Shown in pieces: positions 25,128 through 25,203 of a DNA stretch of 64,000 nt. The DNA comes from Escherichia coli (GTDB taxonomy: Bacteria; Pseudomonadota; Gammaproteobacteria; Enterobacterales; Enterobacteriaceae). Within the stretch, counting starts at the first letter, position 1. The number at the start of each line of letters is the position of its first letter. The translations under genes were made by a program, and so were the position numbers. A model generated the notes under the pieces. The model was not told the origin of the DNA. It did not search any database and worked only from the letters and a program-made list of their open reading frames with translations. The stretch is from the NCBI RefSeq assembly GCF_044324875.1, contig NZ_CP172185.1; one strand, written 5' to 3'.

Positions 25128-25203
25128 CCCCTGAATCTCCTGCGTTTGAAGGACAGTAACAGGTTAAGTGATAACAGATGTATGAAAATATAGAGATACA
25201 TCC
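25128..25203. mobile_element. IS2 terminal remnant (left-end and right-end sequences fused, no coding capacity)
   Basis: TTAGACTGGCCCCCTGAATCTCC (IS2 left terminus) followed 20 bp later by GGTTAAGTGATAACAGATGT… (degenerate IS2 right terminus). Confidence 0.6.

Follow-up and report, generated by a model that had tools for sequence, protein, structure and literature searches.

Genetic context of the IS2-type stub

The window, i.e. the whole 64-kb stretch of Escherichia coli DNA that was analysed, is an island of mosaic structure, rich in IS elements of the IS1, IS3 and IS66 families. Collinearity with the genome of strain VTB97420v, in which the homologous module forms part of an island beside tRNA-Phe, is restricted to positions 16676–31960, and between 32000 and 56000 the coverage by any single complete genome does not exceed 64%. 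No tRNA genes were found in the 64-kb window itself.

The intergenic region of interest extends from the end of a YebF-family pseudogene (24987) to the start of an AbgT-family transporter gene (26037). It contains an 86-bp IS2-type stub, in which both IS2 tips are retained and the interior is missing, followed by a remnant of another IS3-family element (Table 1). The RefSeq annotation leaves the stub unlabelled in all 28 genomes with a locus of the window type. Its surroundings have a GC content of 38–45%, and the stub thus lies beside, rather than within, the AT-rich region in which it had been placed; the AT-rich stretch proper (21–27% GC) covers positions 25660–26000 directly upstream of the AbgT-family gene. 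This stretch contains several promoter-like matches on the minus strand, their overall count (7 versus 4.5 ± 2.0 in shuffled sequences) being not clearly higher than expected.

The transposase-like fragments previously noticed at about 25330–25560 are indeed present, but they belong to one continuous remnant of a different IS3-family element on the opposite strand. This remnant is 88–89% identical to annotated transposase remnants of E. coli M1 and N96, the similarity ending exactly at 25236, and matches the Pfam domain HTH_28 (E = 1e-8). Its translation is interrupted by stops and a frameshift, and RefSeq labels it in strain TUM1886 as “IS3 family transposase, incomplete”.

Several features of the neighbouring genes may be mentioned in addition. 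The YebF-family gene is a pseudogene with an internal stop in all three RefSeq records inspected (VTB97420v, TUM1886 and GF43). The gene of an ABC-transporter ATP-binding protein (21298–22365, minus strand) is an intact open reading frame of 355 amino acids in the window and also intact in TUM1886 and GF43; in VTB97420v it is annotated as frameshifted. The AbgT gene is immediately followed by that of a 1274-residue S6-peptidase autotransporter (both within 26037–31732, plus strand), and the two genes are paired in every context seen. Finally, one metagenome contig (position 4496 onward of the extracted locus) has sequence in common with the window only from 24534 rightwards, a position just before the stop codon of the ROK regulator gene (24539), which suggests a further module boundary near 24534.

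Two full-length IS2 copies of 1331 bp are present in the same window and served as references for the comparison with the stub. Copy A appears to be a recent insertion, as judged from its perfect CAGGC duplication and its 99.7% identity to the IS2 of the F plasmid. Copy B is either older or its flanks have been rearranged, since it deviates by about 5% from copy A and is devoid of a duplication. In another metagenome contig (4635–5965 of the extracted locus) an IS2 of the copy-B type directly adjoins window position 24608, and the equivalent of 16677–24607 with the genes for SodC, the ABC transporter, a phosphodiesterase and the ROK regulator is absent; this joint suggests a deletion adjacent to the IS2 or recombination at the element.

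Table 1. Positions of the stub, its parts and the surrounding features in the window
Feature	Position	Strand	Remarks
Whole mini-IS2	25119..25204	+	Left tip, inner segment and right inverted repeat; without transposase gene
Left tip	25119..25140	+	Outer 22 bp of the IS2 left inverted repeat; cleavage domain and start of the binding domain
Inner segment, 23 nt	25141..25163	+	In register with the last IS2 orfB codons, 13/23 identical
Right inverted repeat, 41 bp, degenerate	25164..25204	+	35/41 versus IS2
Shared block, 139 bp	25097..25235	+	22-bp left flank, stub and 31-bp right flank
IS3-family remnant, not IS2	25236..25656	-	5' end and degraded orfA, cut at the block edge
YebF-family pseudogene, internal stop	24688..24987	+	RefSeq annotation of the identical sequence; gene also delimited as 24634..24987
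AbgT-family transporter gene	26037..27596	+	TIGR00819, E = 1e-227; RefSeq; about 830 bp right of the stub
IS2 copy A, 1331 bp	50115..51445	+	Intact 5-bp target duplication CAGGC on both sides
IS2 copy B, full-length	15346..16676	-	About 95% identical to copy A; without target duplication

Anatomy of the stub

The stub has the sequence TAGACTGGCCCCCTGAATCTCC-TGCGTTTGAAGGACAGTAACAGG-TTAAGTGATAACAGATGTATGAAAATATAGAGATACATCCA and is flanked by TCGGGAACATGTTCTTAGCGGT on the left and by a sequence starting with AGGAAGAGCCAC on the right. The original prediction had localized an internally deleted IS2 footprint at 25128–25203; the footprint is confirmed by the presence of both tips in their normal order, and its borders are corrected to 25119–25204. 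The IS2 left terminus TAGACTGGCCCCCTGAATCTCC, proposed to measure about 23 bp, matches without a mismatch over 22 bp. When up to three mismatches are allowed, this motif occurs three times in the window (none expected from 100 shuffles), the other two matches being the left ends of the full IS2 copies. All 22 positions are shared with copy A, with the F-plasmid IS2 and with two IS2 variants of 95% identity. Positions 23–42 of the left repeat are absent, and the stub sequence from position 23 onwards is unrelated to the IS2 left repeat.

The degenerate right terminus of about 40 bp that had been postulated is present. Its inner motif GTTAAGTGATAACAGATGT is found at 25163–25181 and, in total, three times in the window versus none expected from shuffles. 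Local alignment with copy A gave 41 identities over the 49 positions 25156–25204 and stops at the final IS2 base; the similarity to a full IS2 copy therefore goes well beyond the first 23 bp. Within the 41-bp repeat the six changes affect positions 6, 8, 9, 11, 20 and 23, counted from the outer end, four of them inside the 11-bp cleavage domain. The related stub copy of E. coli SMS-3-5 (see below) agrees with IS2 at 39 of 41 positions. Depending on whether the right match is taken from 25156 or from the repeat itself, the termini are separated by 15 or 23 bp, values on either side of the 20 bp originally estimated.

The analysis of open reading frames and translations showed that the 86 bp have no capacity to encode a transposase; at most about 21 of the last orfB codons are recognisable. 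A 5-bp target duplication is also missing at the stub, whose flanking pentamers differ (left, GCGGT; right, AGGAA). Searching for local repeats gave nothing meaningful.

Inner segment and parent element

The 23 nt between the left tip and the right repeat are less well conserved than the two tips. In register, their 13 identities with IS2 exceed the 25% chance level (binomial p = 0.001), and compared with one of the 95% IS2 variants the number rises to 16 of 23; identity to any IS2 variant seen ranges between 57 and 70%. A free local alignment of the segment against IS2 is not significant, 78% of shuffled sequences scoring at least as high, and an origin from elsewhere in IS2 was rejected since such an alignment performs no better than with shuffles. 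The 10 differences in 23 positions compare with 2 in 41 in the right repeat of the SMS-3-5 copy (Fisher p = 3e-4), with 6 in 41 in that of the window copy (Fisher p = 0.016) and with 0 in 22 in the left tip of the window (p = 6e-4). The inner segment is thus far more diverged than the repeats, a pattern that an evenly distributed decay of canonical IS2 would not produce. Accordingly, the right half is more than a decayed IS2 end: either the parent was a distant relative of IS2, or the inner bases are at least partly filler.

Translation of the inner segment together with the repeat in the frame of orfB gives ...LRLKDSNRLSDNRCMKI*, the IS2 stop codon being retained. This reading resembles the C-terminus of IS2 OrfB with conservative changes, as would be expected from a relative under coding constraint. 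On the basis of these sequence comparisons canonical IS2 is an improbable parent; more likely, the stub descends from a diverged member of the IS2 group with nearly the same terminal repeats. Alternatively, 15 bp of the inner segment may represent filler DNA introduced at a deletion junction, which is possible.

In a diverged parent, the 3' end of orfB would be predicted to read ...LRLKDSNRLSDNRC.... No full-length relative carrying the inner sequence of the stub was detected in plasmids, species representatives or metagenomes, and the proposal of a diverged parent consequently rests on 23 nt. When the 20-residue reading was compared with plasmids by tblastn, nothing better than 70% was obtained among the matches listed; one further record in the 80–90% identity band lay outside them. 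The best of the matches listed corresponds to a separate IS2-group stub downstream of iutA, which is described further below.

Distribution of the 139-bp block

Among 5,426 complete E. coli genomes, 28, for the most part of chicken origin, contain the window-type locus, and a 91%-identical counterpart resides at a different place in 33 further genomes of this set. In SMS-3-5 the counterpart, located in the aerobactin/sit (iuc/iut/sit) island, is bordered by a truncated IS1 on one side and by the 3' side of sitD on the other, and the identity amounts to 88.6% over exactly 25097–25235. In the window-type context, the block has the YebF pseudogene on one side and the IS3-family remnant on the other, and the genes of the AbgT transporter and the serine-protease autotransporter follow downstream. 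No other contexts than these two were encountered in complete E. coli genomes, plasmids, species representatives and metagenomes, and the immediate flanks of the stub are common to both. A BLAST search of 72,556 plasmids with the 139-bp block provided no match at a coverage of at least 80%, only ordinary IS2 right ends. Some of these plasmid matches seemed to carry the IS2 similarity on into the right flank, which alignment showed to be due to chance. An exact 30-mer across the inner segment and the right repeat is absent from 100,044 species-representative genomes and occurs in five metagenome contigs, all in the two known contexts and two of them in the sitD-side one.

The limits of the block are set by other IS elements, namely on the left by the IS1 truncation in SMS-3-5 and on the right by the IS3-family remnant in the window, and beyond them the neighbouring genes of the two contexts differ and have different orientations. 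Because the flanks are the same and the limits are defined by other elements, we conclude that transposition of the stub was not the source of the two copies, which are the remainder of a once longer shared region. The proposal of an old insertion hotspot upstream of the AbgT gene is unsupported in the sense of a repeated targeting: the stub and its flanks were inherited as one 139-bp block that is also found beside sitD. What the data do show is that the junction between modules at this place is rearrangement-prone.

The retention of the block at 88.6% identity in two otherwise unrelated contexts might be taken as a sign of function, for example as promoter, small RNA or terminator of the neighbouring genes. 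We consider this highly improbable, as both boundaries are explained by independent truncations through other IS elements and the genes to be served differ in kind and orientation between the two contexts. Moreover, 25097–25235 contains no promoter-like or terminator-like sites, no Rfam match comes anywhere near the gathering score (E up to 1), and neither the stub nor the block folds, on either strand, with a better energy than shuffled sequences (z between -0.4 and +1.2).

A hybrid island in strain GF43

The E. coli strain GF43 (NZ_CP172127.1; 5535–7250 of the extracted locus) combines the two contexts, passing from one to the other within the stub. Its sequence is identical to the window up to about position 25136 and thereafter to SMS-3-5, running on into sitDCBA. 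The left side is of the window type and contains the ABC transporter, the ROK regulator and the YebF pseudogene. This arrangement is unique among the 5,426 complete genomes. The simplest reading of the sequence is that a homologous crossover between a window-type and a sit-type island took place in the left tip of the stub. As to its direction, the three sequences allow GF43 either to be the recombinant or to resemble an ancestral arrangement.

Origin and mobility of the stub

We interpret the stub as the fossil of an insertion sequence of the IS2 group (IS3 family), no longer functional or mobile, distinct from a MITE and passively inherited, and assign to this reading a probability of roughly 0.7. 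Everything between left-end position 22 and the last 49–64 bp of the right end would have been lost, most simply by a single internal deletion. A short similarity at the two breakpoints (GAATCTC/GAATATC) may have guided this deletion, although such a role of microhomology is speculative. Subsequently, the stub would have been passed on together with its 22-bp and 31-bp flanks in two lineages of the 139-bp block that have diverged by about 11%. Since no empty site was found, neither the insertion at this spot nor the original target duplication can be reconstructed; a search with a degenerate right-flank pattern gave nothing in the species representatives, and the YebF-side flank without the stub does not occur among the 5,426 complete E. 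coli genomes.

The IS2 left repeat of about 42 bp consists of a cleavage domain of 11 bp plus, further inwards, a protein-binding domain (PMC3299598). Judging from the published maps, the stub would be neither bound properly at the left end nor cut properly at the right end. Its presumed immobility is based on the lack of a transposase, the loss of the inner left-end binding domain and the four substitutions in the right cleavage domain.

Among the alternatives, a chance resemblance to IS2 termini can be dismissed. Matches of 22/22 and 41/49 are placed 15 bp apart in the correct order, and neither pattern was found in the shuffled controls. A further possibility is a MITE, i.e. a small non-autonomous element that the IS2 transposase can still mobilise in trans. 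The small size, the terminal sequences of a resident IS and the two full IS2 copies within 64 kb would be compatible with it. However, the stub is confined to two contexts with flanks in common, implying that its copies were carried along by the surrounding DNA rather than spread by transposition; this limited distribution rules out an actively spreading MITE. As a target duplication is absent, left-end positions 23–42 are missing and four of the 11 positions in the right cleavage domain are substituted, a residual mobilisation in trans is scarcely credible either.

More attention must be paid to a composite scar, in which the two tips derive from different elements, 22 bp from one and about 64 bp from another. 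A canonical IS2 would have landed beside or inside an older IS2 relative, with deletions occurring afterwards. Such an origin would account for the perfect left tip (22/22) next to a right repeat with 35/41 and an inner segment with 13/23 identities and for the lack of a matching target duplication, and it would fit a region where nested and truncated IS remnants adjoin one another. The difference between left tip and right repeat is, however, not significant (p = 0.08), and in the SMS-3-5 copy two changes in the left tip are accompanied by two in the right repeat, which implies that both are equally old. Since the 95% IS2 variants have an identical 22-bp left tip, a relative could possess it as well, and order and orientation of the parts are exactly as in one single element. 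We therefore regard the composite scar as unlikely, and favour the deletion fossil of one IS2-group element.

A more far-reaching idea, which we put forward as doubtful but conceivable, is that the right half of the stub represents the sole surviving trace of an undescribed IS2-group element with near-identical terminal repeats and a much diverged transposase gene, and that the 139-bp block acts as a recurrent “hinge” for swaps of island modules. If this were true, the sit iron/manganese uptake module would have been exchanged against the module of the AbgT transporter and the serine-protease autotransporter.

Comparison with related elements

Compared with IS2 (IS3 family, IS2 group; 1331 bp, known from K-12 and the F plasmid) the stub has the same order and orientation of the tips, an identical outermost 22 bp and last 41 bp of 85% (window) or 95% (SMS-3-5 copy) identity, with the orfB stop inside the right repeat retained. 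It differs by its length of 86 bp and by the lack of the inner half of the left repeat. A functional IS2 encodes orfA and orfB, from which the transposase is produced via a -1 frameshift, and generates a 5-bp target duplication as the CAGGC around copy A; the stub has neither the two genes nor a duplication. The right repeat, complete in functional IS2, is represented in the stub at all 41 positions, with the mentioned 35/41 identity and four of the six changes in the cleavage domain. The minicircle or tandem junction of IS2 is composed of the right end followed by the left end with a spacer of 1–2 bp (PMC3299598), while in the stub the left tip, the 23 nt and the right repeat succeed one another as in the linear element.

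Like MITEs derived from bacterial IS elements, the stub is small and carries terminal sequences of a parent IS. Unlike them it has neither multiplicity in unrelated contexts nor target duplications, and its ends appear to be no longer intact. Mini-insertions obtained from IS2 in the laboratory by internal deletion, such as IS2-6, were described in the late 1970s. The principle, termini kept and interior lost, is common to IS2-6 and the stub; the latter is natural, old, degenerate in the right cleavage domain and left with much less of the left end.

The closest parallel among the tblastn matches is the orphan IS2-group right end downstream of iutA. It comprises 71 bp with 86% identity to IS2, is situated about 300 bp from iutA (3004–3074 of each extracted locus) and is unannotated on both aerobactin plasmids studied, the virulence-type p17-15-vir-like plasmid of K. 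pneumoniae and E. coli pWF5-29; among the matches listed, many large K. pneumoniae plasmids carry it. Like the window stub, it is an orphan IS2-group end beside a virulence module, and the reading ...LRL..SNRLSDN... is common to both. The iutA-side end lacks a left tip and deviates from the window stub in sequence and flanks, which characterises it as an independent remnant. Orphan IS2-group ends are common.

Biological implications

The stub is biologically ordinary and of a kind already known. Its only demonstrable “activity” is that of a short homology patch, as seen in GF43, where as little as about 140 bp of shared IS debris would have sufficed for a crossover that exchanged whole virulence modules. 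Of little importance alone, the stub merits a useful note in the annotation, since RefSeq leaves these 86 bp unlabelled. Together with its flanks, it serves as a marker of island history that connects the AbgT/autotransporter module of mainly poultry-associated E. coli with the aerobactin/sit island.
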